A DNA stretch of 46,487 nt, from contig CAZCCY010000003.1 of NCBI GenBank assembly GCA_964497545.1, positions 1-46,487 on the forward strand. Reading direction: 5' to 3'. The translations under genes were made by a program, and so were the position numbers. This DNA is from an uncultured Methanosarcinales archaeon. Lineage in GTDB: Archaea; Halobacteriota; Methanosarcinia; Methanosarcinales; CAZCCY01. This document shows positions 9,767-31,412 of this stretch, one piece after another (within the stretch, counting starts at the first letter, position 1; each line of letters begins with the position of its first letter). Below the pieces are notes generated by a model. It was not told the origin of the DNA. It saw nothing but the letters and a program-made list of their open reading frames with translations, and searched no databases.

Positions 9767-10272
9767 TAATTTACACTCTCTTCTTCTATGCGTACAGGCG
9801 AGGGGAGCTTATGGCCAGCCTTCCGGAGAGCCTCCCGGGCATGCTCAATGTTGGCAGGACTGGTGTAGACCGTGAATATCTTCTGCCCAACCTTAACCCT
9901 GGCAGCAGTCCCCACAGCCTTGCCAAAGGCCTGCCGCATCCCCTGGGAGACCCGATCCGCACCAGCACCGGTAGCCTGCTTATTCTCCCGGAGAACCTCG
10001 AACGGATAAACCCTCAACTTCAAATGATAATTGGCCTGGCCCACCCGCTTCATAAGATACTTGTTAGCAATAACCCTTGCAGCCTCAAGAGCACTATGCC
10101 GGATCTGACAGGCCTCCTCGACAGCCAGCGACACCTCCACCGGGAAATCTGTCTTAAGGTTGCCCATGTCAAACTGGACCACCTTGATACCAGGCACACC
10201 TCCCATGTACTCCCGCCGGGTGTAAGACCGCTGCTTCACATTCCGATACATGCTGGCAGGTTTTCTGACCAT
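9766..10272 (-). CDS. rpl10e: Ribosomal protein uL16 (L10e)
   Basis: '[28 protein letters not shown]' is the characteristic L10e N-terminus; 168 aa. Confidence 0.9.
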
Positions 10273-10425
10273 TCCTATAACCTCAAAGTTAAAATTTAAC
10301 TCCCCCCCTTTATGACCTGTAGGGTTATAAGCCCTTCCCCCTCAGCATAAGGGAAGGCACTGCTTTTATCTACCCTCAGTGTCCTATCTCTAATGTTATA
10401 TTAGTGTAGGTTGGAGGGTGTACCT

Positions 10426-11214: not shown

Positions 11215-11241
11215 TAACAGGTCAGGTCTATCTGGTGTGTC

Positions 11242-12360: not shown

Positions 12361-12415
12361 ACGAGAAACCCTACAAAGTGTCTAGAATGACTAATTAAAG
12401 TGGAGAGTACTAGGT

Positions 12416-13105
12416 ATGGAGTTCGAAACCGAGGTGGAAGATATCATCCAGCGTACCTATAATGTTAAAAGCTTCAGGTTCAGACGCCCCCCTGATCTTG
12501 ATTACAAGCCAGGGCAGTTTCTTTTCATAACCATAAAAAGTGGGGGAGAGGAGATGCAGAAGCATTTCACAATTTCCAGCAGCCCTACTGAGGGTTATCT
12601 GGAGTTCACCAAGAAGCTTACTGGTCATCCGTTTTCCAATGCCCTGGACAGGCTTGAGGTGGGGGACTGGGCGTTTATCCGGACGCCCTTTGGCAGCTTC
12701 ACCTTCGAGGGTGAGCATCCCAGGGTGGCAATGCTCTCTGGCGGTATCGGTATAACACCCCTCCGTAGCATGTGCCGCTATGCCACTGACAAGCGGCTTG
12801 ACACCAGCATAGTTCTCATCTATGGCAACCGGACCGAGGAGGACATTGTCTTCCGGGACGAACTGGATGCCATGCAACGGGAGAACCAGAACCTCCGGGT
12901 AATCCACACCCTCAGCAGCCCTGGGGAGAGCTGGAAGGGGTACCGGGGGAGGATAGAGCGGGAGCTTGTGGAAAGGGAGATTCCAGACTACCTGGAGCGG
13001 GTGTTCTACATCTGCGGTCCCCCCAGGCTGGTAGAGGCCATGAGAGACATAGCCCAGGAGCTGGGAGTGCCAGAGATAATACTGGAGAGCTTCCCAGGCT
13101 ACTAG
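12416..13105 (+). CDS. FNR-family FAD/NAD(P)-binding oxidoreductase
   Basis: FAD-binding 'KHFTISSSP' (RxYS-like) and NAD(P)-binding 'LSGGIGITP...ICGPP'. There is no Fe-S tail. It ends 3 nt before sdhA. Confidence 0.7.
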   Translation: MEFETEVEDIIQRTYNVKSFRFRRPPDLDYKPGQFLFITIKSGGEEMQKHFTISSSPTEGYLEFTKKLTGHPFSNALDRLEVGDWAFIRTPFGSFTFEGEHPRVAMLSGGIGITPLRSMCRYATDKRLDTSIVLIYGNRTEEDIVFRDELDAMQRENQNLRVIHTLSSPGESWKGYRGRIERELVEREIPDYLERVFYICGPPRLVEAMRDIAQELGVPEIILESFPGY

Positions 13106-13108
13106 AAT

Positions 13109-14803: not shown

Positions 14804-14823
14804 AAGAGAGAGAGGGATGGGTT

Positions 14824-15591
14824 ATGGTAGAATTAAGGGTGTTTCGCTCCCCTCCTGGCAGGTATGATGTTTTCGAGGTTGAGGAGCGGGAGGGTATGAC
14901 TGTGCTTGAGGCTCTCTTTAAAATCCGGGAGGAGATAGATGGCAGTCTTGCTTTCAGGTACTCGTGTCGGGGGGCTGTGTGTGGCTCGTGTGCTGTGCTG
15001 ATTAACAGGATACCCAGGCTTGCCTGCCGGACCCAGGTGAGGGATGCTAAAAGCGAGAGTGTATTGGACTTGGTGGCCTACGGCCCCTATGTGAAGCCAG
15101 CTGTCAAAACCGGTGGAAGGATTCTGGTGGAACCTCTCCCCAGCCTGCCGGTCATAAAAGACCTGGTGGTGGACCTTGACAGGTTTCTGGGGCATTATGA
15201 GAGCATTGAGCCCTGGATGTCCTCCCATGGCAATATGAGCCTTGAGGAGATGAAACAGACCGAGGTCTATGCCAACTGCATCCTGTGTGCTGCCTGCTAT
15301 GGTGCGTGTCCTGTGGCCTCCAGGGACAGGGATTTCCTTGGGCCTGCTGCGCTGGCAAAGTCCTGGAGATTCTGCTCAGATACGAGGAACAGCCAGGAGG
15401 ACATTGAAAAGAGGATTGAACAGGTAGACACACCCTGGGGTGTCTGGGGCTGTGATACGGTGTATAAGTGCACCGAGGTCTGCCCCAAGGAGGTGCCACC
15501 AACCCTGGCGATAACGGCTTTCAGAAGAAAGATTCTTGTCCACAGGTCAAGGAAACTTGCAGGCAGACTCGTGAGACTCCTGGGAAGGTGA
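14824..15591 (+). CDS. sdhB: Succinate dehydrogenase / fumarate reductase iron-sulfur subunit
   Basis: 2Fe-2S 'CRGAVCGSCAV', 4Fe-4S 'CILCAACYGACP' and a third cluster 'CTEVCPKEV'. Confidence 0.85.
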   Translation: MVELRVFRSPPGRYDVFEVEEREGMTVLEALFKIREEIDGSLAFRYSCRGAVCGSCAVLINRIPRLACRTQVRDAKSESVLDLVAYGPYVKPAVKTGGRILVEPLPSLPVIKDLVVDLDRFLGHYESIEPWMSSHGNMSLEEMKQTEVYANCILCAACYGACPVASRDRDFLGPAALAKSWRFCSDTRNSQEDIEKRIEQVDTPWGVWGCDTVYKCTEVCPKEVPPTLAITAFRRKILVHRSRKLAGRLVRLLGR

Positions 15592-15598
15592 AAAAAAA

Positions 15599-15937
15599 TT
15601 GAAAGAGAAATATAGTGGTGCTGGGATGTGGGCGTGGGCCCTACAGCGGGTGACAGGGCTCCTGCTTGTCCTTTTCCTCTTCCTCCACCTCTGGAACCTA
15701 CATTTCAGCTACAGGTTCCAGACACCCCTGGACTTTGTTTTCGAAAACCTCTACAAGCCAGCCACCCTCTATTCCCTGCTGGGGATTGTGGTCTTCCATG
15801 GCCTGGCCGGTGTTAGAACCGTGCTGGTGGACTTCGGCCTCAGCCTGAAGGCCCAGCGGGCAGTGTTCTGGACACTTGTGGTGCTGGGCAGTTTGATTGT
15901 AGCCTACGGTGTTTACAAGCGGGCATTCGGCCCCTAA
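15599..15937 (+). CDS. sdhC: Putative Sdh/Frd membrane anchor (single 3-TM cytochrome-b-like subunit)
   Basis: Three hydrophobic helices with conserved-looking His residues ('LFLHLWNLH', 'VVFHGLAG'). It lies directly after sdhB. The start is TTG 15599 or ATG 15626. No second anchor ORF follows. Confidence 0.55.
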   Translation: MKEKYSGAGMWAWALQRVTGLLLVLFLFLHLWNLHFSYRFQTPLDFVFENLYKPATLYSLLGIVVFHGLAGVRTVLVDFGLSLKAQRAVFWTLVVLGSLIVAYGVYKRAFGP

Positions 15938-16288
15938 ACAACGAAAATAGGAGTAAAGGGTGCAGCAGTACTTCCATGCGGGCTCGAAGTGTTTGAATTC
16001 TGTTTTCATTGTATTCTCGTAACGTGCTCAGAAATATTCTGCTATTGGAACCAGGCATAGCGATTTATACCCTTTTCTAATGTTAATATCCTGTTGAAGG
16101 GTTGTGCATAAGTTTGTGCACATTTCCATACACATTTTTATATGTCATTAAATATCTATAATTTGCACCTGAAGCATAAAACTCTGGCAGTGTGCTGAAG
16201 ATAAAATAGAGGGGATGAAAATGTACAAACCGAAGCTATTTCGAGCTCCAGCAGCTCTTCTAAGATATTTTAGAGCAACATCGATCAC

Positions 16289-16597
16289 ATGTATCTGCGA
16301 TACATCTTCTCATTATTGGCACCTGCCCCATTGATCTTTGCACAAGTTGCAGAGGCCCTGGTTCTGCAGGGTGGCCAGGGGACATTTAAAACCAGGCCAA
16401 GGGTCGCGGTGGCAGCATACCACACACCTGTCCAGGCGATGGAGGTCTCCACCTGCCTGACAAAAATGGGATACCAGCCGGGAATAGAGTACGCCCGCTC
16501 AGGCGTCTACCGGGCCATGCAGGACCATGTGCCCATCATCTACGGTGGCGTCTCAGGGAGAGGAGGATTAGGGCCAGGATTGTTAGGGGGGCTGTGA
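16289..16597 (+). CDS. Orphan ORF of uncertain reality
   Basis: Coding-like GC content but no recognisable motif. The last 60 nt are antisense to the C-terminus of the convergent DUF3344 gene. Confidence 0.2.
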   Translation: MYLRYIFSLLAPAPLIFAQVAEALVLQGGQGTFKTRPRVAVAAYHTPVQAMEVSTCLTKMGYQPGIEYARSGVYRAMQDHVPIIYGGVSGRGGLGPGLLGGL

Positions 16598-17432
16598 AAC
16601 CTGGTGTTTTTGAGGGAGAGGTGTGTTTCACTGTCAGGAAGGCGTTGCTGACCACCATGTAGTCTCCGTTGTCCTTGATTCGGATGATGTTTTCTCCTTT
16701 TTTCAGGTAGGGTTTAACGTCTCTTGTGTCGATTGCCAGGTCAGGATAGGGTTTGCCCTGGTAGACCTGGTTCCAGGTTTTTTTGTTGAAATAGAGGGTG
16801 TTTTTACCCTTGTTGCCGCCTGCCACCACGGTGGTGAGTGTGGCTTTTTCTGCCTTGTCAGGGATGTTGTTGAAGCGGATTTCGGTGGTTGTGTTTTTTA
16901 TGCCCTGGAAAGCGTAAATCATGTCTGCCCCCTCGGCGAGCCAGTACTCAGTGTCTCCCTGGTAGACCAGGAGGAGTCCCATCCCGTTTATGGCGAAGTT
17001 GCCCTGGCCTGTGTTTTTTACCATGGCTGTGCAGTCTTTTTTGGTTACAAGGCCTGTGACGTTGTAGGCGTAGGTGCCGCTGGGGTAGTTGTAGGGGTCT
17101 TCTCCTTTCTGGTCGGTGTATTTTCTCTCGGGTGTGAGCAGTTTTCCCTGGAAGGTTGTTTCCATGGATGGGTTTACTCCCTGGTCTCCCTGGTGGCTCC
17201 AGGTCCAGTAGAGGTAGAGTCTTGCAAGTTTTATTTCACCCTCTCTGGGGAGGGTGAATTTCACGGTGTAGCTATCGCCTGGTGCCAGCTCGCCGCTGTA
17301 GGTGCTGTTTCCTATGGTGAAAACAGGCTCGCCTTTCCCGTGCTGGTAGGTTTCGAGCCGGTCTCCGGTGTAGGATGCTAGGGCGGGGGGTGTCAGGATG
17401 AGTGCCAGTGCGAGTGCTGCTATGATTTTCAT
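16536..17432 (-). CDS. Secreted DUF3344-like protein (single B-type domain) with PGF-CTERM sorting signal
   Basis: Signal peptide 'MKIIAALALALILTPPALA'. Blocks 'GNSTYSGEL', 'IKLARLYLYWTWSH', 'YPSGTYAYNVTGLV' and 'EYWLAEGADM' are shared with the paralogues. C-terminal 'PGFTAPLTILALILLSLRRHRR'. Confidence 0.8.
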   Translation of the reverse strand: MKIIAALALALILTPPALASYTGDRLETYQHGKGEPVFTIGNSTYSGELAPGDSYTVKFTLPREGEIKLARLYLYWTWSHQGDQGVNPSMETTFQGKLLTPERKYTDQKGEDPYNYPSGTYAYNVTGLVTKKDCTAMVKNTGQGNFAINGMGLLLVYQGDTEYWLAEGADMIYAFQGIKNTTTEIRFNNIPDKAEKATLTTVVAGGNKGKNTLYFNKKTWNQVYQGKPYPDLAIDTRDVKPYLKKGENIIRIKDNGDYMVVSNAFLTVKHTSPSKTPGFTAPLTILALILLSLRRHRR

Positions 17433-17483: not shown

Positions 17484-17723
17484 TTATGGCTTTCTTTTGA
17501 TGGGTGATATTTTACCGGGTGTGATGTCTATGGTGGCTATTTTTGTCACCCCATGGGTTTTGTTGCTGATTAGGGTCACTGGCTCCTGGGCATGTTCGTT
17601 GGATTGTAGCTGTGGGAGTGTCATTGCCAGTGCTGCTACCAGGGCCAGTGCCAGGGCGATTGCCTTCCACCTGCGTGCCTCCATTTCGGCTTTGTTGAGA
17701 CTCTCTGTTTCAGTATTTGGCAT
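17484..17723 (-). CDS. Small signal-anchored protein (79 aa)
   Basis: One TM segment 'WKAIALALALVAALAMTL'. It overlaps the end of the 807-aa gene by 14 nt and is co-oriented within the array. No family was recognised. Confidence 0.35.
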   Translation of the reverse strand: MPNTETESLNKAEMEARRWKAIALALALVAALAMTLPQLQSNEHAQEPVTLISNKTHGVTKIATIDITPGKISPIKRKP

Positions 17724-20133
17724 AGATGTTGTACCTCCCTTTCTCCATTTCCAGTGCGAAGCTCCCGTCGCTGTGTGTCATTGTGATGTAGACCCGTTCT
17801 TCGTCTGTGTCCTGTTGTCCATTGTCGTTGGCATCGTAGTATCCCACGTTGGTCAGGTATTCCTGGGTTTTGTGGGTGAAGGGGTCTGTGAGGTTCAGTT
17901 TTAGCTCGATGCTTGTGGTTTTTATTTTTGTCCAGTCCCATTCTGAGGGGTCTGTGGTGGCGTTTATCCCGTAGACTTCTATGTTGGGTGCTTCCCGTTT
18001 CCCGGCGACCTGGTTGAATTTGTTGTAGACTGCGAAGAAGAGGGTGCCTGTTGCTGCTCCGTAGCGGCTGTCTGGTACTGTTTTTATGCCGAGCTCGCTC
18101 AGTTCTCCTGGTGTGATGTCTGTGACGCCCAGGTCTGGGAGTTTGGGCTTGGTTTTGAGTATGAGTATGGCGTTGCTTGGTACTATGTAGTCGCCTCTGT
18201 CCTGGATGGCGAGTTTGTTGTTACTGGGCTGGAGGTGGCTGCCCACCTCCCACCGGTCTACCGCGATGAGCTGTCTGGAGGAGGGTGCGTCTGTTGTTCC
18301 GAGGAGGTGGGTGTTAAATGTAACCTTGTTTTTGTCCTGGTCGCCCTTGTCTGCACCCGGGATGACTGTTATGAGTGTGGCGTTTTTCACGGTGTCGAGG
18401 TCCACAGGGCCGTTGAAGTCTATCTGGGTGGTTGCCTGTTCTGGTGGGATGTCTTTTGCGTAGAGCATGTCTGCGCCCTCTGCGAGCCAGTATTCTATCT
18501 CAGTGCTGGTGTCTTCCACCACCACAAGTAGTCCTACCCCGTACATGGCGAAGTTGCCCTCGCCTGTGTTGTTAATGGTTGTGGTGTAATTCCCTTTACC
18601 GGTTACCAGGTCTGTCACATTGTAGGCGTAGGTCCCGCTGGGATAGTCAAAGCTGCCAAAGCCTTTGCTGTCAGAGTATTTCTCCTCTGGCGTGATGGTT
18701 GTCCCGTTGAATTTCACCTCCATCTCTGGATCGGCGCCGGTGTCCTCTTTGTGGCTCCAGCTCCAGTAGAGGTAGAGTCTTGCCAGTTTGATGGTGGCGT
18801 CAGTTTTCAGTTCTGACTCCACGGTGTAGCTGTCACCGTTTGCCAGCTCCCCGCTGTAGGTGCTGTTTCCCAGGGTGAATATTATGTCCCCTTGTATTTT
18901 CTCGTGTCTGTAGATGGTGAGGGGTTTGTCTCCGAAATACCCGTTTTTTGTCACAACCTCGGCGTCTGTGCTGTTCGCATTGTTTGTCTCATTGGATTCC
19001 TCGACCTCTCCCTCTGGGTCTGCTCTGACCTCGAGGAGGTAGGTTCCAGTCCCGGGTGGGTTCCAGGAGAATTCTACCGTGGTGTTTGAGCCTGGGTTCA
19101 GGCCCGGGATTTCCACGGTGTCGGTGGGGTTGCTGTCCACGTAGAGTGTGGCGTTGAAGGCTGTGGCGCTTCTTGTGCCCTGGTTGGCAATTTCAGCTTT
19201 TATGGTGCTGGGGGTGTTGTTGTAGATGAAAGCTGGCAGGCTCAGGTTCCCCACGGTGAGGTCTGGTTTCCCTGGTGGTGCGCCTTTTGTCAGTAAAAGC
19301 ACTGCAATTACCGGGTGCAGGCTTGTCCCGCTCCCCCGGTCAAACACCAGGGTGTTACTGGACGAAGCGAGTTTGTCTGTGACATCCCAGCTGTCCAGGT
19401 CAAAGTAGCTTCCCTGGTCTGCTTTTGCAGCGTCTGTGGCGATGGTGTTCCCGTTAAGGGTGAGGGTGTCGTCATCGCCTTTTTTGCTTGCAATGTATGC
19501 TGTCCAGAGGGTGGCGGTGCTACTGGTGTCGATTGTGCCCTGGAAGGCTGTGGAGGCTGTGTCTTTCGGGGTCTTGTGGTTGGGGTTCTCGTTCCCCTCG
19601 TTTATCCAGTACTCTATCTCCTCCCCGGTGGGGTCATTGTAGGCTGCTACAAGCACCATGCCATAGACCCGGCCGTCGATGTCTCCGCTGGTTGTGGCGG
19701 TCGCGGTATTCGAGCCTTCTTTGATTTTGTCGGTTACATTGTAGGCTGTCCAGTAGACGCCATAGCCTGACACGTAGACGTTGGGGTTTGTGTCGGCTTG
19801 ACCTCCGAGGTTTAAGGTTCCGAGGTCGTTGCTGTTAAAGGTTGTCTGAAGTGTACCGGTGTACTCAGGGTTGCCGCCCCAGACCCCCACGTAGAGTCTT
19901 GCGTATTTGATGCTGGATGGCACGTTGTTGAAGGTCTGAGTGTAGGGAGAGGATTTCAGGCCGTGTCCGCCGTTGATGTAGATTCCGCCTTTTATGGTTT
20001 CGTGTCTTGTGGTGCTGAGGGGTATGCCGTCGAAATTGTAGATGGCGGATGCTGGTGTTATCAGGAGTATCGCGCAGGATGCGAGCCACGCCATCCCCAC
20101 TATTTTTCTTTTTTTTATTTTTTTGATTTTCAC
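17710..20133 (-). CDS. Large secreted protein: DUF3344 A-type domain, CARDB domain, DUF3344 B-type domain, unknown C-terminal domain
   Basis: Signal peptide '..AWLASCAILLITPASA'. A-domain blocks are 'IKYARLYVGVWGG', 'VYWTAYNVT', 'YGMVLVAAY', 'EYWINEGNE' and 'YFDLDSWDVT'. CARDB block is 'PDLTVGNL...IANQGT...EESNETNN'. B-domain blocks match 16536-17432. The GTG start overlaps the upstream stop (GTGA). Confidence 0.85.
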   Translation of the reverse strand: MKIKKIKKRKIVGMAWLASCAILLITPASAIYNFDGIPLSTTRHETIKGGIYINGGHGLKSSPYTQTFNNVPSSIKYARLYVGVWGGNPEYTGTLQTTFNSNDLGTLNLGGQADTNPNVYVSGYGVYWTAYNVTDKIKEGSNTATATTSGDIDGRVYGMVLVAAYNDPTGEEIEYWINEGNENPNHKTPKDTASTAFQGTIDTSSTATLWTAYIASKKGDDDTLTLNGNTIATDAAKADQGSYFDLDSWDVTDKLASSSNTLVFDRGSGTSLHPVIAVLLLTKGAPPGKPDLTVGNLSLPAFIYNNTPSTIKAEIANQGTRSATAFNATLYVDSNPTDTVEIPGLNPGSNTTVEFSWNPPGTGTYLLEVRADPEGEVEESNETNNANSTDAEVVTKNGYFGDKPLTIYRHEKIQGDIIFTLGNSTYSGELANGDSYTVESELKTDATIKLARLYLYWSWSHKEDTGADPEMEVKFNGTTITPEEKYSDSKGFGSFDYPSGTYAYNVTDLVTGKGNYTTTINNTGEGNFAMYGVGLLVVVEDTSTEIEYWLAEGADMLYAKDIPPEQATTQIDFNGPVDLDTVKNATLITVIPGADKGDQDKNKVTFNTHLLGTTDAPSSRQLIAVDRWEVGSHLQPSNNKLAIQDRGDYIVPSNAILILKTKPKLPDLGVTDITPGELSELGIKTVPDSRYGAATGTLFFAVYNKFNQVAGKREAPNIEVYGINATTDPSEWDWTKIKTTSIELKLNLTDPFTHKTQEYLTNVGYYDANDNGQQDTDEERVYITMTHSDGSFALEMEKGRYNIYAKY

Positions 20134-21884
20134 TGTTTCTCCCTTCTTGTTATTTTTCGTTTTTTCTGGATTATCAGGAAGGCTGAGAGTCCGACAAGCA
20201 TCAGGATGGCGGATGGAAGCTCGGGGACTGGTGCTGGACTTCCTGGGCTTGAGCCCAGTATCAGGAAGGCGTTGCTTGGCACCATGTAGTCGCCCATATC
20301 CAGGACTCCAAGCTTGTTACCGGCTGATTGCACATATGCTAAGACATCGCGGGTGTCCACCGCGGTTGCGGAGGAGTCCAGCACCCCGGTCCAGGCCTGG
20401 TTGTTGAATAAAATCTCGTTTTTATCCTGGTCGCCCTTGTTTGCACTTGGGACAACAGTAATCAGGGTTGCACTCACAAGGTTACCGGGAATCACGTAAC
20501 CATCGAAGTTGATGTAGGTTGTCTGGTCCGGGGCAGTACCATAGCTTGTTTTTGCATAAACTGTGTCCGCACCCTCGGCAATCCAGTATTCCTTCCATTC
20601 TCCATTGGGGTCCTCAAATACGACAAGTAACCCTACTCCATACATGGCGAAGTTGCCCTGACCTGTGTTTTCCACCACGGTTGTGTAGTCTTTTGTGGCT
20701 GTCACAAGGCTTGTGACATCATAAGCATAGGTCCCGCTGGGATAGTCATAGCTGCCGAAGCCTTTGCGGTCATAGTATGTCCTATCCGGGGTAAGGGCGT
20801 TCCCGTCAAATTTTACTTCCATTTGGGGCTGGGTGACGCCCTGGCTCCCCTGGTGGCTCCAGCTCCAGTAGAGGTAGAGTCGTGCCAGCTTAACCGTGGA
20901 GCCAGAGGGAACATCCACATGGGATGTCACGGTGTAGGTGTCACCATTTGACATCTCCCCGCTGTAGCTGCCTCCAACGGTGTAGTTGAGACTTCCTTTT
21001 ACACTGTCGTGTCTGTAGATGGCCAGCGGCCTGTCAGCGAAATACCCGTTTTTCTCTTTCTTGGTGATTGCAAGCACTGCAAGTACCGGGTGAAGATGGG
21101 AATCGCTCCCCCTGTCAAACACCAGCGTGTTACTGGACGAAGTGAGTTTGCCTGTGACATCCCAGCTGTCCAGGTCGAAGTAGCCTCCTTGGTCTGCGGC
21201 TGCAGCGTCTGTGGCAATGAGGTTCCCGTTGAGGGTGAGGGTGTCACCATCCCCGCTTCCTCCTGCTAGGTAGGATGTCCAGAGTGTGGCGTTTTCCACC
21301 CCGGTGAGGTTAACTGTGCCATTGAAATAGCTGTCTGCTGTGTCTTTTCCAGAATGGAGATGCTCGTTACCCTCGTTTATCCAGTATTCCACAAGCGGCT
21401 GGCTCTGGTCCTCGTAGACTGCTACAAGCACCATGCCATAGACCCGGCCGTCAATGTCTCCACTGGTGGTGGCAGTTGCTGTGTTCGAGCCTGTGTTAAC
21501 CATGCCGGTCACATCATAGGCTGCCCAATAGACGCCGAATGCTGAGACATATACATTGAGGTTGGTGTCGGCTTGACCTCCGAGGTTTAAGGTTCCCAGG
21601 TCCTGGCCATTAAAGGTTGTCTGGAGTGTACCGGTGTACTCAGGCTTGCCGCCCCAGACTCCCACGTAGAGTCTTGCATATCTGATGTTGGATGGAACAT
21701 CGTTGAAGGTCTGAGTGTAAGGTGGATATGCCAGACCGTGGCCACCACTGACGTAGATTCCGCCTGCAAGGGTTTCGTGTCGTATGTTTTTCAGTTCGAA
21801 TCCATCTACATTGTAGTTTGCCGATACTGGTATTGCCAGGAGAACGAGCACTCCCACCAGTCCTATCCACATACATGTTCTCAT
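20130..21884 (-). CDS. Secreted DUF3344 protein (A-type plus B-type domains) with a PEF/PGF-like C-terminal membrane anchor
   Basis: Signal peptide 'MRTCMWIGLVGVLVLLAIPVSA'. It shares the A and B blocks of the 807-aa paralogue. The tail is 'SPAPVPELPSAILMLVGLSAFLIIQKKRK'. GGAGG lies 7 nt upstream of the ATG. Confidence 0.85.
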   Translation of the reverse strand: MRTCMWIGLVGVLVLLAIPVSANYNVDGFELKNIRHETLAGGIYVSGGHGLAYPPYTQTFNDVPSNIRYARLYVGVWGGKPEYTGTLQTTFNGQDLGTLNLGGQADTNLNVYVSAFGVYWAAYDVTGMVNTGSNTATATTSGDIDGRVYGMVLVAVYEDQSQPLVEYWINEGNEHLHSGKDTADSYFNGTVNLTGVENATLWTSYLAGGSGDGDTLTLNGNLIATDAAAADQGGYFDLDSWDVTGKLTSSSNTLVFDRGSDSHLHPVLAVLAITKKEKNGYFADRPLAIYRHDSVKGSLNYTVGGSYSGEMSNGDTYTVTSHVDVPSGSTVKLARLYLYWSWSHQGSQGVTQPQMEVKFDGNALTPDRTYYDRKGFGSYDYPSGTYAYDVTSLVTATKDYTTVVENTGQGNFAMYGVGLLVVFEDPNGEWKEYWIAEGADTVYAKTSYGTAPDQTTYINFDGYVIPGNLVSATLITVVPSANKGDQDKNEILFNNQAWTGVLDSSATAVDTRDVLAYVQSAGNKLGVLDMGDYMVPSNAFLILGSSPGSPAPVPELPSAILMLVGLSAFLIIQKKRKITRREKQ

Positions 21885-21980
21885 ACTTTTCCTCCATATT
21901 ACTCCTATTTAGTAATACTAATTCTCGTGTAGATAGAATTTAAACTACATAAATGTTTCTTATAATCAGAAATTTTAAGT

Positions 21981-22006
21981 AAAAAAAACAAAAATTTAAT
22001 AAAAAA
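21981..22006 (-). terminator. Oligo-T tracts (T8, T6 on the coding strand) after the S-component gene
   Basis: Plus-strand A8 (21981-21988) and A6 (22001-22006) lie downstream of the stop at 22027-22029. AT-rich promoter-like DNA for the next gene follows. Confidence 0.35.
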
Positions 22007-22026
22007 TACTATTTTTTCTTTGTATT

Positions 22027-23097
22027 TCATATTGTTGCTTTTCGCATCTTCCGGGCGATATCATACCCAATGTAACCGCCAATAACACCCCCCAGAGCGG
22101 CAATGCCAACCTCGCTCCAGGCATACCAGGGAGCATAATACACCTTCCACACCGCAGGAGCAAAAAGAAAATAAAACGTCCAGTACGAAAACCCACCCCT
22201 GACAACACCATAAATAATAGACGTCCCCCGTTTATCCCCATAATCCCGGAACAACATCACAAGCACATCCACAATCACACCCTCACCCATGTACCACCCA
22301 AGCCAGAGAGTGACATTAGTCCCCCACACCACCATCGCCACAAGCTCCACCACAGTGAAAAGCAGGGTGGCTGTCCCAGGCTTCCTCACCAGCTGAAGCG
22401 CAACTATCAACACCACCGTGGTAGGAATCGTGAAGAGAAGCCCGCCCAGCGGGCCCAGCAGGTCATTAAAGGTCTGCCAGAACCACCGGAACACCACCCC
22501 AATAAGAGCGGCAAGAAGCGCCAGGGTAACCAGGTCAATGGTGGTAAACCACTCAAGCAACCTGAGCCTCCGGGACACCAGAAACACAACCAACACAATA
22601 AGAAAACTGGCAACCAGACTCCCGTAGGTCACCCAGGAAGGAGGCGGCACAACCTCCACCTCATGGATGTAACTCTCCCTCCTAACACCACCACCATCAG
22701 AATAACTCACATTCACCCGGAAGCTCACACTCTTCCTGAACTCCACAGACTCAGGCGGCTTAACCGAGAAAACAAAAGAACTAGAATCCCCTGGCCCCAG
22801 GACATCAATAACAGCCTTCACCCTTCCACCCTCCACCCAGGTCTCGGTCTCCTGGCCAGGAACCTCAACATCCATACCAGACGGGACATCCACACTCACC
22901 CTGACATCCCGCAAAGGCGTCTCACCATTGTTGGTCAGGGTGACCCTCGCCCTCTCATGCCAGGTGACACCTGCCACCAGCCTGTCAGATTCATAGATGT
23001 CCTTGTTCTTCACAGGTATGGTCATCCCCACCTCCAGCCCGCCCACTGCCAGACAGGCAAGGAGAATGATAACCAGGACAAAAAGGGAGCGCCTCAT
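22027..23097 (-). CDS. YkoE-like ECF transporter S component with an N-terminal signal peptide and beta-sandwich ectodomain
   Basis: The C-terminal ~190 aa are multi-TM: 'TTIDLVTLALLAALIGVVF...LVRKPGTATLLFTVVELV...', resembling the YkoE / ABC_cobalt-type S-component pattern. The N-terminal ~160 aa are 'VTLTNNGETPLRDVRVSVDVPSG...'. An ATGA overlap couples it to the upstream gene. Confidence 0.65.
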   Translation of the reverse strand: MRRSLFVLVIILLACLAVGGLEVGMTIPVKNKDIYESDRLVAGVTWHERARVTLTNNGETPLRDVRVSVDVPSGMDVEVPGQETETWVEGGRVKAVIDVLGPGDSSSFVFSVKPPESVEFRKSVSFRVNVSYSDGGGVRRESYIHEVEVVPPPSWVTYGSLVASFLIVLVVFLVSRRLRLLEWFTTIDLVTLALLAALIGVVFRWFWQTFNDLLGPLGGLLFTIPTTVVLIVALQLVRKPGTATLLFTVVELVAMVVWGTNVTLWLGWYMGEGVIVDVLVMLFRDYGDKRGTSIIYGVVRGGFSYWTFYFLFAPAVWKVYYAPWYAWSEVGIAALGGVIGGYIGYDIARKMRKATI

Positions 23098-24008
23098 CTC
23101 CTACGCCTCAACCGATAAAAGAAAAACACGACACTGGCCACCAGCACCACAATTACCGGCATCGGGACAGTAGCCCTCCCAGGGCCAACCTGCCCACCCA
23201 GCCTGAGATAATCCTCCCCCTGGTCATAGAGGTACTCCACCGCCAGAACCGCGTTGAAAGGATGAATATATGCCTCCTCACCCCGCTCAAACCTCAAGGT
23301 GTTATTCAAACCCACCAGGCCTGTCACATCCCACCTGTCCAGGTCAAAATACGCCCCGGACTTCGCCCTACCCACATCCTCTCCCAGAAGCTGGGAGTTA
23401 AAATAGAGACGATCCTCCTCACCCTTGTTCCCCGCTATTAAAACCGTCCAGAGAGTGGCATTTTTTATTTCAAGGGAGGTGGCATTGAAGACAACACTGG
23501 TACTATCCCTGGTCTGACGGGCAAGAGCCTGGTTCCCCTCTGCTATCCAGAACTCGGTCTGAGGCATGCTAGAATTCCGATAAACAGCAACAAGGACAAT
23601 ACCATAGGGGGCACCATTCAGATTATGATACCTCACCGAGACCCTGTTCACACCCTCTGATAGCATGCCGGTGACATTGTAGACATAACATGCAACACCC
23701 CAGGCTGCCAGATAATCAGGAGAACTCCGCCTCCCAAGAGTCCTGTTATTGATGCTCACCTCAAGCCAGTCATCCCTGTTGTAATTCCACATCGGCACAT
23801 AGAGCCTGGCATACTCTATCCTGGAGGGCAAGTCAAAATACTCCTCATAAGGGTTTTCATGGGTGTAACCATGGCCACCCCCCACAAACACGCCCCCATG
23901 CACCCTGCCCTCAGCCACAACATAGAGGGGTGTCCCCTCCCCCCTCCACTCACCCCCACTTGCAACCGGGACAAAAAGAAGAAGGACAAAAAGAAGGACA
24001 ACCCTCAT
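23094..24008 (-). CDS. DUF3344-like (A-type) extracytoplasmic protein with a C-terminal TM anchor, embedded in the ECF operon
   Basis: Signal peptide 'MRVVLLFVLLLFVPVASG'. Blocks are 'IEYARLYVPMWN', 'CYVYNVTG', 'YGIVLVAVY', 'EFWIAEGNQ' and 'YFDLDRWDVT'. The tail is 'VPMPVIVVLVASVVFFFYRLRRRR'. ATGA overlaps occur at both ends. Confidence 0.8.
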   Translation of the reverse strand: MRVVLLFVLLLFVPVASGGEWRGEGTPLYVVAEGRVHGGVFVGGGHGYTHENPYEEYFDLPSRIEYARLYVPMWNYNRDDWLEVSINNRTLGRRSSPDYLAAWGVACYVYNVTGMLSEGVNRVSVRYHNLNGAPYGIVLVAVYRNSSMPQTEFWIAEGNQALARQTRDSTSVVFNATSLEIKNATLWTVLIAGNKGEEDRLYFNSQLLGEDVGRAKSGAYFDLDRWDVTGLVGLNNTLRFERGEEAYIHPFNAVLAVEYLYDQGEDYLRLGGQVGPGRATVPMPVIVVLVASVVFFFYRLRRRR

Positions 24009-24841
24009 GTTGGAGCAGTCCCCCCATACCCTGTAAAACTGAGATAGACACCAGCCCCCAGGGAGAGGAAAATATATGCCAGTAAAATGAAATCCCCCTT
24101 TTTGAGTTTCAGCTCCCGCAGATATGTCCGGTTCTTCACTGCCCGGAAGGCACGGGCATCTGCAGCAATGGCAATCTGCCTCCCTGTCCTGAGCACATTG
24201 ACAACCAGGGGCAGGAGAAGATGCCTCAGAGCCTTTATCTTATTCTTTTTTATTTTCAAACCCCGCGCCTGCATGGCGTTTATGGTGATAGCACCTCCCT
24301 CTATCATGGAGGGGGCGAAACCCACAGCAGAGGAAACCATGAAAGCAATCTCAGGGGGCAGACCCAGACTCCGCCTGCCCCACGGGATAAACCTGACAAG
24401 CCCCACAATAAGCTCGCTGGGATGGGTGGTGGCAACCAGCACCATGGCAGCACTCACCGATGCCATGAACCTGAGCGACTGGATAAGCCCATAGATTGCA
24501 CCCTCGCGATAAAAATAGATTCCACCAGTGATGCTCCCCAGCACCGGGAAATCAGGGGGCACCAGCGTAAACGTGGGAGTGTCCCCCCAGTAATAGAAAA
24601 AGGACTGGGAGACCATGAATCCGAAAACCATGGTGGAGAGAATAAATATCATGGAGACAACCTTCTCCCGGGAAAAAGCAATCCAGAAGGGGAGGGTGGA
24701 GAGGAAGACAGCTAGAAGCATCCAGGGCACACCCACCATCACCGAGAGCACCGAGACACTGAACACCCACAACAGCTTGACACGGGGGTCAAGCTGATGA
24801 ACAAAGGTGTCCTTCTGATCATACCGGAATATGCCACGCAA
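24005..24841 (-). CDS. ecfT: ECF transporter T component (EcfT / CbiQ / YkoC family)
   Basis: 'LDPRVKLLWV' N-terminus, multi-TM body, and 'ARG' coupling-helix-like motifs ('AMQARGL', 'ADARAFR'). The TTG start has GGAGGAGG 9 nt upstream. Confidence 0.85.
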   Translation of the reverse strand: MRGIFRYDQKDTFVHQLDPRVKLLWVFSVSVLSVMVGVPWMLLAVFLSTLPFWIAFSREKVVSMIFILSTMVFGFMVSQSFFYYWGDTPTFTLVPPDFPVLGSITGGIYFYREGAIYGLIQSLRFMASVSAAMVLVATTHPSELIVGLVRFIPWGRRSLGLPPEIAFMVSSAVGFAPSMIEGGAITINAMQARGLKIKKNKIKALRHLLLPLVVNVLRTGRQIAIAADARAFRAVKNRTYLRELKLKKGDFILLAYIFLSLGAGVYLSFTGYGGTAPT

Positions 24842-24983
24842 AAACCACAGCCTCCTCCAATCTCAACACAACTTTTTTAACATTAATATCAATAAAGGTA
24901 ACACCAAAAGTTAAATTCATGATATTTATACTTAATTGATGACAGCATAATTGATATAAATAGTAAATATTCCTATTACATGT
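24842..24983. promoter_or_regulatory. AT-rich divergent promoter region between ecfT and ecfA
   Basis: TATAAATA at ~24955-24962 lies 22-29 nt before the ecfA ATG, suggesting a leaderless transcript. On the other strand, TTTATTGATATTAATG-type TATA-like sequence lies upstream of ecfT. Confidence 0.4.
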
Positions 24984-26528
24984 ATGATTTCCATCGAAAA
25001 TCTAACCTACTACTACCCTGACTCTGAAAAACCAGCCCTCCAGAACATAAACCTGAAGATAAACAAGGGCGAATTCGTGCTGCTTGTAGGTCCAACCGGG
25101 AGCGGGAAATCCACCCTCCTCCAGTGCCTCAACGGCATAATACCCAGAGTAACCGGCGGCAGACTGGAAGGAAAAATAGAAATCAATGGTAAAACCACCA
25201 CCCAACACAAAGTATACCAGCTATCCCAGATAGTGGGAATGGTGTTCCAGAACCCTGACACCCAGCTTTTCGGGCTCACCGTAGAAGAAGACACCGCCTT
25301 CGGACCTGAAAATCTGGGACTGCCCAGAAGAGAAATCCAGAAACGGGTAGAAAAAGCCCTGGAAACCACAGGTATCCCCCACCTCAGAGACCGGTTCACC
25401 TTCACACTCTCAGGCGGAGAAAAACAGCGGACAGCCATAGCAGGAAACCTGGCCATGAAACCAGAGATACTGGTACTGGACGAACCCACCTCAGACCTCG
25501 ACCCCCAGGGCACAAAACAGGTGCTGGAAACCATAAAAAAACTGAACAGAGAACAGAAAATCACCATAATACTGGCAGAACACAAAATAGACCAAATAAT
25601 CAAAATGGCCACGAGAACCATCGTGATGGACAGGGGCACCATAATACTGGACGGAAAAACCAGTGAAATCTTCAAAAACAAAACCCTGGAAAACATAGGA
25701 ATCCATTCACCCCAGCTAAAACATCTCCCCCAATTTAAAACCACATCCCCCAGGGCACACCCGGCCGGGAACCCCCAGATAATATTCGAAAATGTCTATT
25801 TCAGTTACCACAAAACACCAGTACTCAGAAACATAAATCTCACCATAAACAAAGGAGAGTTCATGGCGATAATAGGGCCAAACGGCTCTGGCAAAACCAC
25901 CCTCCTGGGCTGCCTCATAGGGCTCATAAAACCCACCCAGGGCAGAGTGCTGATAGAGGGAGAGGACATCTCAAAAAAAAGCGTACCAGAACTGGCAGAA
26001 AAAGTCGGATACCTCTTCCAGAACCCGGACTACCAGCTCTTCACCGACACCGTGACCGAGGAGATAGCCTTCGGCCTCAAAAACCGGAACCTCCCCCCCA
26101 CCGAGATAGAAAAGAGAGTGGAAAAAACCCTGGAAACCATGGAACTAACAGAGTACAGGGACCGACATCCCCAGTCCCTCAGCCGGGGACAGCGACAGCG
26201 GCTGGCCCTGGCATCCATACTGGCACTGGAACCAGAGGTCCTCCTCCTGGACGAGCCCACCACTGGCCAGGACAGAGGACACCTGAAAAAACTCCTCCAG
26301 AAAATAAAAGAACTGAACAACACCGGGAAAACCATACTCCTGGTAACACACGATATGGACCTGGCACTGGAAAACACCCACCGGACAATCGTAATGAAAG
26401 ACGGCAGAATACTCCTGGACGCACCCACACCCCAGGTGTTATCTGAAATACTGGAAAAAGCATCCTTTGCCTTCCAGAGAGAAATCACCCAGGCCATGCT
26501 TGCAGCCTGCAGCAATTTTAAAGGGTGA
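24984..26528 (+). CDS. ecfA: Duplicated ECF/ABC ATPase (EcfA-EcfA' fusion, YkoD-like)
   Basis: Two full ABC cassettes: 'GPTGSGKST...LSGGEKQR...LDEPTSDLD' and 'GPNGSGKTT...LSRGQRQR...LDEPTTGQD'. Confidence 0.9.
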   Translation: MISIENLTYYYPDSEKPALQNINLKINKGEFVLLVGPTGSGKSTLLQCLNGIIPRVTGGRLEGKIEINGKTTTQHKVYQLSQIVGMVFQNPDTQLFGLTVEEDTAFGPENLGLPRREIQKRVEKALETTGIPHLRDRFTFTLSGGEKQRTAIAGNLAMKPEILVLDEPTSDLDPQGTKQVLETIKKLNREQKITIILAEHKIDQIIKMATRTIVMDRGTIILDGKTSEIFKNKTLENIGIHSPQLKHLPQFKTTSPRAHPAGNPQIIFENVYFSYHKTPVLRNINLTINKGEFMAIIGPNGSGKTTLLGCLIGLIKPTQGRVLIEGEDISKKSVPELAEKVGYLFQNPDYQLFTDTVTEEIAFGLKNRNLPPTEIEKRVEKTLETMELTEYRDRHPQSLSRGQRQRLALASILALEPEVLLLDEPTTGQDRGHLKKLLQKIKELNNTGKTILLVTHDMDLALENTHRTIVMKDGRILLDAPTPQVLSEILEKASFAFQREITQAMLAACSNFKG

Positions 26529-26905
26529 TAAAGCCTATTCTTGGGGGGTGTATGAGACACCTCCCAGGTCTTGTGGAAGAGGGTAGCCCTGTTTACCTCC
26601 GGCTCTCCCGGGGTCAAGGCGAGACCTCAGGCCAGCTTTTCTGTGAGCTCGTGCAGGCAGCCCGCTTTGGCAGGAGCTTCCGCATCTCAGACCAGGCTTG
26701 CCGGGTGGGAAGATATGTCCTGGGGGATGAGGAGTCGCCTGCCAGCTATTATGCGGAAAAAGGGAGGTATCAGAGCTCTGAGGCTGCAAGGCGGGCTGCA
26801 GAGGGCCTGCCCAGACTCAAGAAGGGCTATGCGTCCCTGGGGTCAGGGATATTGAGGAGGCTCTGGAAAAAATATCGGAGACACTGGGATGAAGGTCTGT
26901 GTTGA
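26525..26905 (+). CDS. Possible truncated DUF169-like ORF (may be a decayed gene)
   Basis: 'FCELVQAARFGRSF...ACRVGRYVLGDEE...YYAEKGRYQSSEAARRAAEGLPRL' resembles the N-terminal half of DUF169 (COG2043) proteins from memory. The C-terminal half is absent. Another frame ends 'DIEEALEKISETLG*' in an ATGA overlap with the next gene. Confidence 0.3.
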   Translation: MIKPILGGCMRHLPGLVEEGSPVYLRLSRGQGETSGQLFCELVQAARFGRSFRISDQACRVGRYVLGDEESPASYYAEKGRYQSSEAARRAAEGLPRLKKGYASLGSGILRRLWKKYRRHWDEGLC

Positions 26906-29331: not shown

Positions 29332-30579
29332 ATGTCTGAGATTTCCAGTATGCTGGTTACTCATGTGAAGGCCAGCGTTGAAGACATTGAGAAGATGGGT
29401 GCCTGGCACGGTGGGGTAGAGGAGATTCTCAAGATGCTTAAGCAGGTTCCTGAGGTGGAAGAATGCGCTGTACTCAAAACCTGCAACCGGGTGGAAGTCT
29501 ATGTAGTCTCTAAAAAAGGGAGCAAGGTCCTCCTCAACTTCGCCAAAAAAATGAAGGTCTCTTCTAGAATCGTGGATTTCCTGGACCATGAGGAGTCCCT
29601 CCGCCACCTTCTCAGGCTGGCAGCCGGGATAGAGTCCATGATAGTGGGAGAGGACCAGATCCTGGGACAGATGAAAGAACTCTACAACCTGGCAAAAAAG
29701 GCGAAGGCAACCGGTAGGGTCCTGGACCTGGCGTTTAACAAGGCCATCCAGGTGGGCAAAAGAGTCCGTAACGAGACCAAAATTAACAAGGGGTCTGTTT
29801 CCATCGGCTCTGCCGCGGTGGACCTGGCAGAGGATGTCCTGGGAGGATTGAAAGGCAGAACCGTGATGGTGATCGGTGCGGGTGAGATGGGATCGCTTGT
29901 GGCACGGGCACTTGCCAACCGGAATATCAAAGTGATTTACGTGGCCAACCGGACTTTTGAGCGGGCAAAAGAACTGGCGCAGGAACTCAAAGGCCAGGCA
30001 GTAAACTACAACAACATCCTGGAATACATGGAAACCTCAGACGTTGTAATCGCAGCGACATCAGCCCCCCACACCATACTGAACCGGGAGATGCTGGAAG
30101 GGTTAAACCGGAAGGAGAAGCTTCTGCTGATTGACATTGGCAACCCCAGAAATATCAGCGAAGACGTTAAAGAGCTTCCAAACGTCGAACTCTACAACCT
30201 GGACAGCCTCAAACGTATCAGCGAAAGAAACCTGGAGTTGCGACGTGAAGAAGCAAAGAAAGCCGAGAAAATAATCGAAGAAGAACTGGAACTCCTCAAA
30301 TTACATTACAAACGCCAGAAGGCAGAAGCCCTACTCTCAGCTATCTACCGTAAAGTCGAGGAAATACGCCTCAAAGAGAAACGCCAGGCCATAAACAGGC
30401 TCAGCGCCTATCACACCATGGGAAAAATAGAAGAGGAAGTAATCGACGACCTCACCCACTCCTTCGCCAACCAGATCCTCGCCCATCCCACAAAATTCAT
30501 GAAAACCGCAGCAGAAGAAGGAGACGAGGAAGCACTGGAAATAGTCTCGGAGCTCTTCGGCCTAAACGGCAGCAAATGA
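29332..30579 (+). CDS. hemA: Glutamyl-tRNA reductase
   Basis: 'LKTCNRVEVYVV', 'GEDQILGQ' and NADPH-binding 'VMVIGAGEMG'. Confidence 0.9.
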   Translation: MSEISSMLVTHVKASVEDIEKMGAWHGGVEEILKMLKQVPEVEECAVLKTCNRVEVYVVSKKGSKVLLNFAKKMKVSSRIVDFLDHEESLRHLLRLAAGIESMIVGEDQILGQMKELYNLAKKAKATGRVLDLAFNKAIQVGKRVRNETKINKGSVSIGSAAVDLAEDVLGGLKGRTVMVIGAGEMGSLVARALANRNIKVIYVANRTFERAKELAQELKGQAVNYNNILEYMETSDVVIAATSAPHTILNREMLEGLNRKEKLLLIDIGNPRNISEDVKELPNVELYNLDSLKRISERNLELRREEAKKAEKIIEEELELLKLHYKRQKAEALLSAIYRKVEEIRLKEKRQAINRLSAYHTMGKIEEEVIDDLTHSFANQILAHPTKFMKTAAEEGDEEALEIVSELFGLNGSK

Positions 30580-31412
30580 AACCCCCCTGGCTCAAAGTTA
30601 AACCACCCGGGGAAGAAGAATACCTCCACCTGAAAAAGAGTCTGGCAGGCCTTCCAACCGTATGCGAGAGGGCCAGGTGCCCCAACCTGGGGGAGTGCTG
30701 GAGCCACGGGGCCGTCACCTTTCTGATCCTGGGAGACGCCTGCACCCGCAACTGCCATTTTTGTGCTGTCCCCACCCTGAAACAGAGCCTACCCCCTGAC
30801 CCGGACGAACCGTTAAAACTTGCCGAAACCGCAGAAAAACTAAACCTGGAATACGCTGTCATAACCTCGGTGGACCGGGACGACCTCCCAGACGGGGGTG
30901 CAAGCCACTATGCCAGGTGCATCCAGGCCCTAAAATCCAGAGGCATAAAGGTGGAAGCCCTCATCCCCGATTTCCAGGGCGACATCCAGGCTCTGGCCAG
31001 GGTGGTTGAGGCAGGGCCAGAGATTGTAGCCCACAACCTCGAGACCACCCGGAGGTTACACCCTGTTGTCCGGGACATCCGGGCGAGCTATACCCGCTCC
31101 CTCCAGGTTCTCAGGGAGGCAGGAGAAATGGGAGCCACCACCAAGTCATCGCTCATGCTCGGCCTAGGCGAAACCAAAGCAGAGGTCCTGGAAGCCATGG
31201 AAGACCTCCACAGTGTGGGAGTAAGCATCCTCACACTGGGGCAGTACTTACAGCCCAGCAAGGACAAACTGGCAGTCAGTGAATACATTCCACCCTGGAA
31301 GTTCGAAGACTACCGCACTCTGGCCCTGGAGATGGGATTCAGAGAGGTGGTGGCCGGCCCCCTGGTGCGAAGCTCCTACCAGGTATGGGAATACAGAACC
31401 CAGGACAGTTAA
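30576..31412 (+). CDS. lipA: Lipoyl synthase
   Basis: 'CERARCPNLGECW' and radical-SAM 'GDACTRNCHFC'. It is coupled to hemA by an ATGA overlap. Confidence 0.9.
   Translation: MKPPWLKVKPPGEEEYLHLKKSLAGLPTVCERARCPNLGECWSHGAVTFLILGDACTRNCHFCAVPTLKQSLPPDPDEPLKLAETAEKLNLEYAVITSVDRDDLPDGGASHYARCIQALKSRGIKVEALIPDFQGDIQALARVVEAGPEIVAHNLETTRRLHPVVRDIRASYTRSLQVLREAGEMGATTKSSLMLGLGETKAEVLEAMEDLHSVGVSILTLGQYLQPSKDKLAVSEYIPPWKFEDYRTLALEMGFREVVAGPLVRSSYQVWEYRTQDS

Follow-up and report, generated by a model that had tools for sequence, protein, structure and literature searches.

Transporters of the energy-coupling factor (ECF) type are textbook importers that need no extracytoplasmic binding protein. In the present work, we examine an ECF operon on a 46,487-nucleotide contig of an uncultured Methanosarcinales archaeon (CAZCCY010000003.1, assembly GCA_964497545.1; this whole stretch is called the window below), in which a membrane-anchored ectoprotein of the DUF3344 family, here called D, is encoded between EcfT and the S component. 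We compare the operon with its relatives in other genomes, and also with known transport systems. We will show that DUF3344 and ECF genes are truly linked, that they form an operon and that the link is deeply conserved, and we will argue that a capture or accessory role of D in the transporter is the best-supported reading of it.

Results and Discussion

The operon lies on the minus strand and runs from EcfT (24005-24841; 278 residues, CbiQ family) through D (23094-24008; 304 residues) to the S gene (22027-23097; 356 residues), the three genes being joined by two ATGA overlaps, CAACATGAGGG and GGAGATGAGGC. EcfT starts with a TTG codon, nine bases past a GGAGGAGG Shine-Dalgarno sequence. It scores 86.6 bits against the CbiQ family PF02361 (cut-off 25), and its translation contains coupling-helix motifs of the Ala-Arg-Gly type, AMQARG and AADARA. 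On the plus strand, a divergent gene (24984-26528) encodes a fused EcfA-EcfA' ATPase of 514 residues (EcfAA') with two PF00005 domains, in both of which the Walker A, Walker B and signature motifs are found. This protein scores 507 bits with TIGR04520 (ECF_ATPase_1) and 498 bits with TIGR04521 (ECF_ATPase_2), the NCBIfam cut-offs being 315 and 330. The two transcription units are separated by a 142-bp AT-rich divergent promoter region (24842-24983; 26% GC compared to 53% in the operon), which holds a conserved TATA-like element, TCAATTAAGTATAAATA, common to loci of Methanoperedens and of group 2a of the anaerobic methanotrophic archaea (ANME-2a). The coordinates, the overlaps, the TTG start with its Shine-Dalgarno sequence, the duplicated divergent ATPase and the AT-rich spacer had been given in the original prediction, made from the letters of the DNA, and all of them are found in the sequence. 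S, T and A genes are encoded together, both here and in the majority of the 63 genome loci described below, which is the gene content of a group I ECF system.

D matches PF11824 (DUF3344) with 127.7 bits, compared to a gathering score of 27.2, and covers profile positions 5-275 of 275; the family is also matched by all 32 D orthologues tested. The protein begins with a hydrophobic signal (residues 1-22) and ends with a transmembrane helix (276-301) and an RRRR tail. In an alignment of the 32 orthologues (A1), the mature protein starts, after the signal peptide, with an invariant GEW(R/H)G; then come the invariant loop motifs GGHG, EGN, AG..GE.D and R..E..H-P, a variable linker of ~25 residues, the transmembrane helix and the basic tail. 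When 62 orthologues are considered, the C-terminal anchor is present in 61 of them and the GEW motif in 48, the latter being found in 8 of 146 paralogues.

The S protein consists of a signal or transmembrane segment (residues 1-20), an immunoglobulin (Ig)-like ectodomain of the NEW3/CARDB-like type (about 21-150; PF10633, 27.5 bits), an extra helix called H0 (154-178) and a core (186-355). The original prediction had described neither the Ig-like nature of the ectodomain, which is some 130 residues long, nor H0. The AlphaFold2 (AF2) model (pLDDT 88.9) predicts a beta-sandwich for residues 21-150 and helices across 186-355, compatible with six transmembrane segments after H0. The core is highly conserved and the ectodomain poorly so. 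Two motifs stand out in the core, namely LVRKPG and, in the first core helix, A193xxxA197, which is at least 90% conserved in the family alignment A2; an AxxxA motif in helix 1 has been described as needed for the docking of S components onto EcfT.

The only Pfam S-component family matched is PF09819 (ABC_cobalt/YkoE). The original prediction had called the S protein YkoE-like, and for the window protein itself this is marginal (23.5 bits, short of the 25.2 required by the gathering score); the label holds better for the family, as nine of ten orthologues tested score 26-30 bits, above the gathering score, and 31 of 36 family members match at E ≤ 0.01. The window protein has no match in NCBIfam and none in a plasmid collection. 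Sequence and profile searches of the PDB with the S protein, the family profiles A2 and A4, and a core-only relative gave no meaningful matches, and the two profiles retrieved no S-component chain at E ≤ 10.

The S homologues listed are 243-378 residues long, nearly all of them 345-378, which means that the full-length members carry the N-terminal extension. A HMMER scan of 1.84 billion representatives yielded 739 relatives. Among these are core-only relatives of about 205 residues, one of them in a plain AA'-T-S operon, and distant relatives are likewise found in AA'-T-S or S-AA'-T operons; neither group has a Pfam match. The PF09819 scores of the orthologues, the AxxxA motif and the AA'-T-S relatives support the proposal that this transmembrane gene is an ECF S component. 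As a separate observation, the ectodomain profile also matches repeated Ig-like domains of giant surface proteins of 1,000-7,900 residues.

We now turn to the conservation of the arrangement. A search for D homologues gave 77 proteins, mostly of 300-345 residues and with 44-66% identity, and those with names come mostly from ANME-2, Methanoperedens and other Methanosarcinales metagenome-assembled genomes (MAGs). A pattern scan in which each GTDB species was represented by a single genome produced 63 loci, onto which the T, D, S and A proteins of the window were mapped by tblastn. The set covers ANME-2, Methanoperedens, cultured Methanosarcina, Methanospirillum, Methanoregulaceae and one Firmicute MAG, and a Helarchaeote locus was added through a separate look-up from the S side.

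The S gene lies directly 3' of D in 60 of the 60 orthologous loci with enough downstream sequence, and this adjacency is kept down to 43-48% identity. The single exception is a 32%-identical paralogue. The same adjacency is seen in five of the five contexts that were found by starting from S. A T gene occurs in 49 loci; where at least 5 kb upstream of D and 6 kb downstream are available, it is missing just from one (L045), and a further locus with less sequence upstream of D (L046) is also without it. The gene order is T-D-S in the ANME, Methanomicrobiales and Firmicute loci, A being divergent in the archaeal loci and located downstream in that of the Firmicute. Methanosarcina has a MacB/FtsX gene ahead of D-S, followed by divergent A and T (in M. 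horonobensis, S is MSHOH_2921 and D is encoded directly upstream of it), and in the Helarchaeote the order is A-D-T-S. In most loci, the EcfAA' gene is divergent from T. Overlaps of four nucleotides between genes occur in the window and in three other loci (L002, L004 and L073). D thus stays inside the ECF gene set through rearrangements, which refutes a one-off adjacency, and the linkage noticed in the original prediction is borne out by the gene-neighbourhood comparison.

It could be argued that the adjacency is devoid of functional meaning, and that DUF3344, as a surface or adhesin module of a generic kind, has ended up in a syntenic block by chance. A screen for fibrillar adhesins has indeed flagged DUF3344 as an ambiguous adhesin-like cluster, and shared ancestry does contribute to the synteny, because all loci were retrieved by homology. 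We strongly disfavour this explanation and find it hardly credible, since the adjacency extends across Methanosarcinales, Methanomicrobiales, an Asgard archaeon and a Firmicute at the low identities given above, survives three gene orders and comes with translational coupling. In addition, the anchored orthogroup has features of its own, namely the GEW N-terminus and the transmembrane anchor. As to the size of the family, a 2022 survey counted about 3,400 UniProtKB homologues in its DUF3344-overlapping cluster.

The strongest indication of the cargo, which is not part of the original prediction, comes from a bacterial branch of the S family, the context of which is given by four loci. Its members share the architecture of ectodomain, H0 and core (hhalign between A2 and A4: 99.9%, E 2.7e-35, 352 columns). 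In one locus (L074), a TonB-dependent receptor with Plug and barrel is followed by S, EcfAA' and EcfT in this order, and in another (L077) a TonB C-terminal fragment lies upstream of S-EcfAA'. The most informative locus, L076, on a 2.17-Mb metagenomic contig, has the order cobalamin riboswitch, TonB-dependent receptor, S homologue and PduO-type cobalamin adenosyltransferase. The riboswitch (RF00174, 75 bits compared to a gathering score of 31.5, E 4.7e-17) lies 28 nucleotides upstream of the orthologous receptor gene, and the S homologue is related to A2 with an hhalign probability of 98.3%. By standard comparative-genomic logic, this gene order indicates a corrinoid uptake operon. Directly downstream of it, at 9786-17092, lies an open reading frame (ORF) that exceeds 2,275 codons and is cut by the end of the locus.

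In the archaeal and Firmicute loci, several neighbours have to do with metals or tetrapyrroles. Genes for a CobN-type large chelatase subunit and ChlD/ChlI-like proteins are found near the module in six fetched loci, which correspond to four distinct genomic places, three in Methanosarcinaceae and one in the Firmicute; the CobN proteins of the two groups are about 50% identical. The Firmicute locus also has MotA/ExbB and DUF2149 genes immediately upstream of T. Proteins of the CobN-like BtuS type have been implicated in metalloporphyrin salvage. NikR (RHH_1 and NikR_C) is encoded within a few kb of the module in six ANME-2a loci and, in a published description, beside DUF3344-ECF genes on a Methanoperedens plasmid. 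CbiMN(Q) genes are close by in two Methanomicrobiales loci (L073 and L047), where the genuine CbiM is a separate gene. The window has no CobN, ExbB, NikR or CbiMN gene, the one related neighbour there being HemA at a distance of 2.8 kb.

These neighbours raise the possibility that the system takes up Ni(II) or Co(II) ions, with D and perhaps also the S ectodomain serving as metal-binding accessories in the manner of NikK and NikL in NikKMLQO. In addition to NikR and CbiMN(Q), the invariant His, Glu and Asp residues in the loops of D and its invariant mature N-terminus would fit such a role, and NikKMLQO sets a precedent for extra periplasmic ECF components. The S core is, however, not a CbiM or NikM, as it has neither a match to PF01891 nor an N-terminal Met-His motif, and its conserved aromatic and polar residues resemble the pocket for an organic ligand. 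The bacterial branch is linked to the B12 riboswitch and TonB, and CobN-type chelatases act on tetrapyrroles. The window, moreover, holds no NikR gene by tblastn, and a search for the delta-proteobacterial NikR box (GTGTTAC-N13/14-GTAACAC, up to three mismatches) found none in the promoter and a count at chance level over the window. Uptake of the bare ions is therefore considered improbable.

We next consider the further DUF3344 proteins. Downstream of the S gene, and following a 142-bp spacer (21885-22026; 19% GC with oligo-T runs) that likely serves as an archaeal terminator of the T-D-S transcript and as promoter of what follows, the minus strand of the window encodes an array of three paralogues. 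The first (20130-21884; 584 residues, secreted or anchored) has two PF11824 matches with 365 bits in total and is made up of a type-A domain, with the motifs GGHG, EGN and R..D..H-P, a type-B domain and a C-terminal transmembrane helix. The second (17710-20133) is a DUF3344(A)-CARDB-DUF3344(B) surface protein (two PF11824 matches and PF07705) of 807 residues from a GTG start; its GTGA overlap with the preceding gene holds just if this start is used. The third (16536-17432; 298 residues, PF11824 199.7 bits) is a single type-B protein with a weak PGF-CTERM-like tail (TIGR04126 15.7 bits, below the cut-off). In the window and in related loci, two subtypes of DUF3344 domain can be told apart. Type A is defined by GGHG, EGN and R..E/D..H-P and comprises D as well as the N-terminal domain of each large protein, those of 584 and 807 residues in the window. 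Type B is without these motifs and comprises the C-terminal domains of the large proteins and the 298-residue protein.

Extra secreted DUF3344 genes are present within 10 kb of the module in 34 of the 39 loci of at least 12 kb, their number ranging from one to five or more with a median of three. In a Methanoregulaceae locus (L073), four of them are overlap-coupled to S. The five remaining long loci have none, which means that the array is frequent and not obligatory, the core unit being T-D-S plus A. In two ANME-related loci (L004 10313-11650 and L005 3175-3990), the module is without an adjacent ATPase and is followed by an S-layer gene (PF07752) and not by DUF3344 paralogues.

Exporter-type ABC genes were also observed around the module. 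Of the 74 related loci, 27 have a MacB_PCD/FtsX-type permease next to the module (L071 7758-8939 and L012 8708-9907 are examples), in Methanosarcina directly upstream of D-S on the same strand, and ABC-2 exporters are found in five loci. A second ABC system of exporter type may thus belong to the same functional island. In the window, tblastn found no MacB/FtsX gene.

The original prediction had offered, as an alternative to the accessory role of D, that the ECF motor serves the DUF3344 array, which we favour less. Another reading is that the module moves a cofactor or building block outward to load or mature the DUF3344 proteins, D being the first acceptor. ECF exporters exist, with genes colocalized with those of extracytosolic client proteins, as for Listeria EetB/FmnA, which export flavin for extracytosolic flavinylation, and both the clustering of the paralogues with the module, down to a shared operon in L073, and the exporter-type neighbours could be read in the same way. 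The TonB-dependent receptors and the cobalamin riboswitch in front of the bacterial S homologues are uptake contexts, on the other hand, and five loci have the core module without extra DUF3344 client genes. Furthermore, the 30 most widespread neighbour clusters of the 74 loci, of which just clusters 4-6, 9-12 and 14 are identified by Pfam or called-gene tables, include no recurrent modifying enzyme of the ApbE/FmnB type. Taken together, we consider export to be unlikely.

The AF2 model of D (pLDDT 87.4) is all-beta and has two tandem beta-sandwich halves. The Foldseek search that had been proposed along with the original prediction did return hits, the best PDB matches being PNGases (9lwg 8.8e-9, 1png 1e-7 and 9vla 6e-7; probability 1.0). 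Next in the list are jelly rolls that bind sugars, from GH2 enzymes, rhamnosidases and BcsB, and double-jelly-roll capsid proteins. The superpositions themselves are poor, with TM scores of just 0.26-0.29 and an rmsd of about 13 Å. Membership of D in the PNGase F family was tried and rejected at the sequence level: hhalign of A1 against PNGase F, the sequence of which was checked to be identical to 1PNF, gave a probability of 0.2%, and no Pfam N-glycanase match was found at E ≤ 10. Sequence and profile searches of the PDB with D and A1 gave no meaningful matches. By sequence, D is thus not a member of the PNGase family, and the resemblance of the modelled fold is at most a weak lead.

This lead would correspond to D being a PNGase-F-like ectoenzyme that processes or binds glycans on a glycosylated S-layer or on surface proteins, with the ECF transporter importing the released product. 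The high conservation of acidic and His residues in D would agree with such an activity. Apart from the poor superposition and the failed profile match, the recurrent neighbours include no glycan-metabolism genes, and ECF S components carry small micronutrients and not sugars. This makes a glycan role highly improbable.

With these alternatives in mind, the reading that we favour, with moderate confidence, is that of a dedicated ECF importer of the group I type, for which the DUF3344 proteins act as a surface capture and hand-off relay, the cargo being a corrinoid or other metal-tetrapyrrole. Since bacterial relatives of S are located behind a B12 riboswitch, cofactors resembling B12 are probably what the system takes up from the surroundings of the cell. 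As cargo, a corrinoid, a related metal-tetrapyrrole or a metal chelate is the most likely, a corrinoid in particular being a tentative choice among these.

The proposed mechanism is as follows. EcfAA', EcfT and the unusual S component would work with D as an obligate partner, a type-I membrane-tethered protein. Held off the membrane by its short linker and placed next to the membrane-proximal Ig domain of S, with which it would be in contact, D would capture the cargo. Alternatively, it may receive it from the larger type-A DUF3344 proteins encoded nearby in most loci, which are predicted to be anchored further out in the envelope by transmembrane, PGF-CTERM or S-layer homology (SLH) anchors. 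From D, the cargo would then pass into the binding pocket that the S core provides. S would dock on EcfT or topple against it, and ATP hydrolysis by EcfAA' would reset the cycle. In an envelope without outer membrane, the DUF3344 layer would thus be the counterpart of the TonB-dependent receptor that serves the bacterial S homologues.

A bolder version, which we consider speculative and rather doubtful, is that DUF3344 proteins are unrecognised surface binders of metal-tetrapyrroles (cobamides, possibly F430 or heme) in archaea and monoderm bacteria. They would form an Isd-like relay from S-layer-anchored multi-domain receptors to the tethered single-domain D and on to the ectodomain-bearing S, and the bacterial S proteins would be the inner-membrane partners of TonB receptors controlled by B12 riboswitches.

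It is important to point out that several observations weigh against the import of a corrinoid or metal-tetrapyrrole through D. No ligand has been demonstrated for DUF3344, and the nearest solved folds of D, PNGase F and sugar-binding jelly rolls, would point to glycans rather than tetrapyrroles, though at TM scores of just 0.26-0.29. The NikR and CbiMN neighbours fit Ni/Co ions or F430 as cargo equally well. The riboswitch evidence comes from one bacterial locus, the S protein of which is just about 20% identical to that of the window; with Rfam, neither the window nor the related loci L063, L047 and L048 gave a riboswitch, and no B12 gene adjoins the module there. Five long loci have no extra DUF3344 genes. 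For S, the family matches no CbrT, BtuM or YkoE sequence in the PDB. The top 50 matches in the fold search with its model are all to the Ig-like ectodomain (integrin leg domains, TRAP, YcnI and pilins), and because the list is filled in this way, the six-helix S fold is left without a structural match. Finally, the tethered ectodomain and H0 might hinder full toppling of S.

We now compare the module with known systems. ECF import of B12 (ECF-CbrT) and a solitary B12-binding S protein (BtuM) are established, and a heme ECF importer, LhaSTA, encoded inside the isd locus of Staphylococcus lugdunensis, and ECF systems with extra periplasmic components are also known already. The premise of the original prediction, that ECF transporters are defined by the absence of extracytoplasmic binding proteins, is thus too strong, because systems with extra extracytoplasmic components, NikK and NikL in NikKMLQO, have been described before.

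Like ECF-CbrT of Lactobacillus delbrueckii and BtuM, the window S would be an S-type membrane protein for corrinoids, powered by or derived from an ECF system, and btuM often occurs with btuB and B12 riboswitches, just as a bacterial homologue of the window S is found in a cobalamin-riboswitch/TonB-receptor operon. In contrast, the window S family has no detectable sequence similarity to the solved chains, and CbrT and BtuM are without Ig-like ectodomain, extra helix or DUF3344 partner. NikKMLQO and CbiMNQO share with the module the presence of operon-encoded extra small or periplasmic components (NikK, NikL and CbiN) and, in some lineages, NikR-linked regulation. They differ in the core of S, as noted above, and in the extra component, D being a 300-residue double beta-sandwich that is unrelated to NikK, NikL and CbiN by Pfam.

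LhaSTA is an ECF importer of a metal-tetrapyrrole located among surface-receptor genes that reuse one binding domain at different envelope depths, and the predicted DUF3344 relay would be comparable to the NEAT-domain relay of Isd. LhaSTA does not depend on the Isd receptors, however, and lacks an obligate tethered partner, and NEAT domains are unrelated to DUF3344. The Hmu and Btu systems of Bacteroidota (HmuY-HmuR-HmuS-HmuT-HmuU-HmuV; CobN-like BtuS), which serve to acquire metalloporphyrins or corrinoids, combine a surface binder with a CobN-like chelatase or dechelatase, an ATPase of the AAA type, a MotA/ExbB-like component and one further small protein. The Firmicute and Methanosarcina loci, in which CobN, ChlD/ChlI-like, MotA_ExbB and DUF2149 genes accompany the module, mirror hmuSTUV. 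Hmu, however, uses a TonB-dependent receptor in an outer membrane and lacks an ECF transporter, and the window is without CobN and ExbB.

Two further ECF systems are of interest. In Listeria, the ECF-type subunits of EetB/FmnA are genetically linked to extracytosolic client proteins, as here, but they export flavin and need a transferase of the ApbE type, none of which is seen at the DUF3344 module. YkoEDC, which handles a thiamine precursor, has a fused double ATPase, a dedicated T component and an S component matching PF09819, just as the module does. The match of the window protein is marginal, however, and YkoE has neither an ectodomain nor a partner protein; in addition, Rfam found no THI-box in the window or in three related loci, and thiamine genes are not among the recurrent neighbours.

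Some observations on the surrounding DNA should be mentioned. The T/A intergenic regions of seven loci (L006, L008, L010, L012, L014, L061 and L064) and of the window (24842-24983) have an element TTAAGTATAAATA in common. Those of ANME-2a contain a short palindrome, TTAC(G/T)T-N2-A(C/A)GTAA, in which the changes from locus to locus compensate each other. We regard this palindrome as a candidate operator; several of the loci have NikR genes nearby. In a Methanosarcinaceae locus (L044), the corresponding region (13898-14178) has seven tandem copies of GGATTGTATC. In a Methanoperedens locus (L001, 4684-7056), EcfAA' is 790 residues long and is fused to a Diphthami_syn_2 (ATP-pyrophosphatase-like) domain.

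In the window, the stop codon of EcfAA' overlaps by four nucleotides with an ORF of 126 codons on the plus strand (26525-26905), which matches DUF169 in part (PF02596, 28 bits, profile positions 36-106 of 209) and is possibly a truncated remnant. Further along the same strand (29332-31412), 2.8 kb from the ECF ATPase, glutamyl-tRNA reductase (HemA) is encoded in overlap coupling with a radical-SAM gene; its proximity to a putative tetrapyrrole importer could be a coincidence. The remaining part of the window is ordinary archaeal housekeeping DNA.

Conclusion

The original prediction knew of no description of a DUF3344-ECF linkage, and there is none either among the papers listed by a full-text literature search for DUF3344. 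One of these, on a Methanoperedens plasmid, lists DUF3344 ORFs beside EcfT and EcfA genes without connecting them and guesses at a 'biotin transporter'. The literature likewise yielded no description of S components that carry an ectodomain plus an additional helix, of an obligate tethered DUF3344 partner for an ECF transporter, or of an S family split into a DUF3344-linked and a TonB/B12-riboswitch-linked branch.

In this ECF branch, the S subunit has an ectodomain of its own, to which the archaea and the Firmicute add a tethered ectoprotein as a constant companion. For the toppling model, this raises the question of how toppling proceeds when S bears both an additional helix and an ectodomain of 130 residues. 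For DUF3344, the present results provide a first testable functional hypothesis, and they suggest how organisms without an outer membrane may capture scarce cofactors at the S-layer. The finding bears on the cobamide, nickel and F430 economy of methane-cycling archaea, in which cofactor supply limits the production and oxidation of methane. If the bolder version of the proposal is correct, methanogens and methane-oxidising ANME could scavenge their most expensive nickel and cobalt cofactors from the environment.

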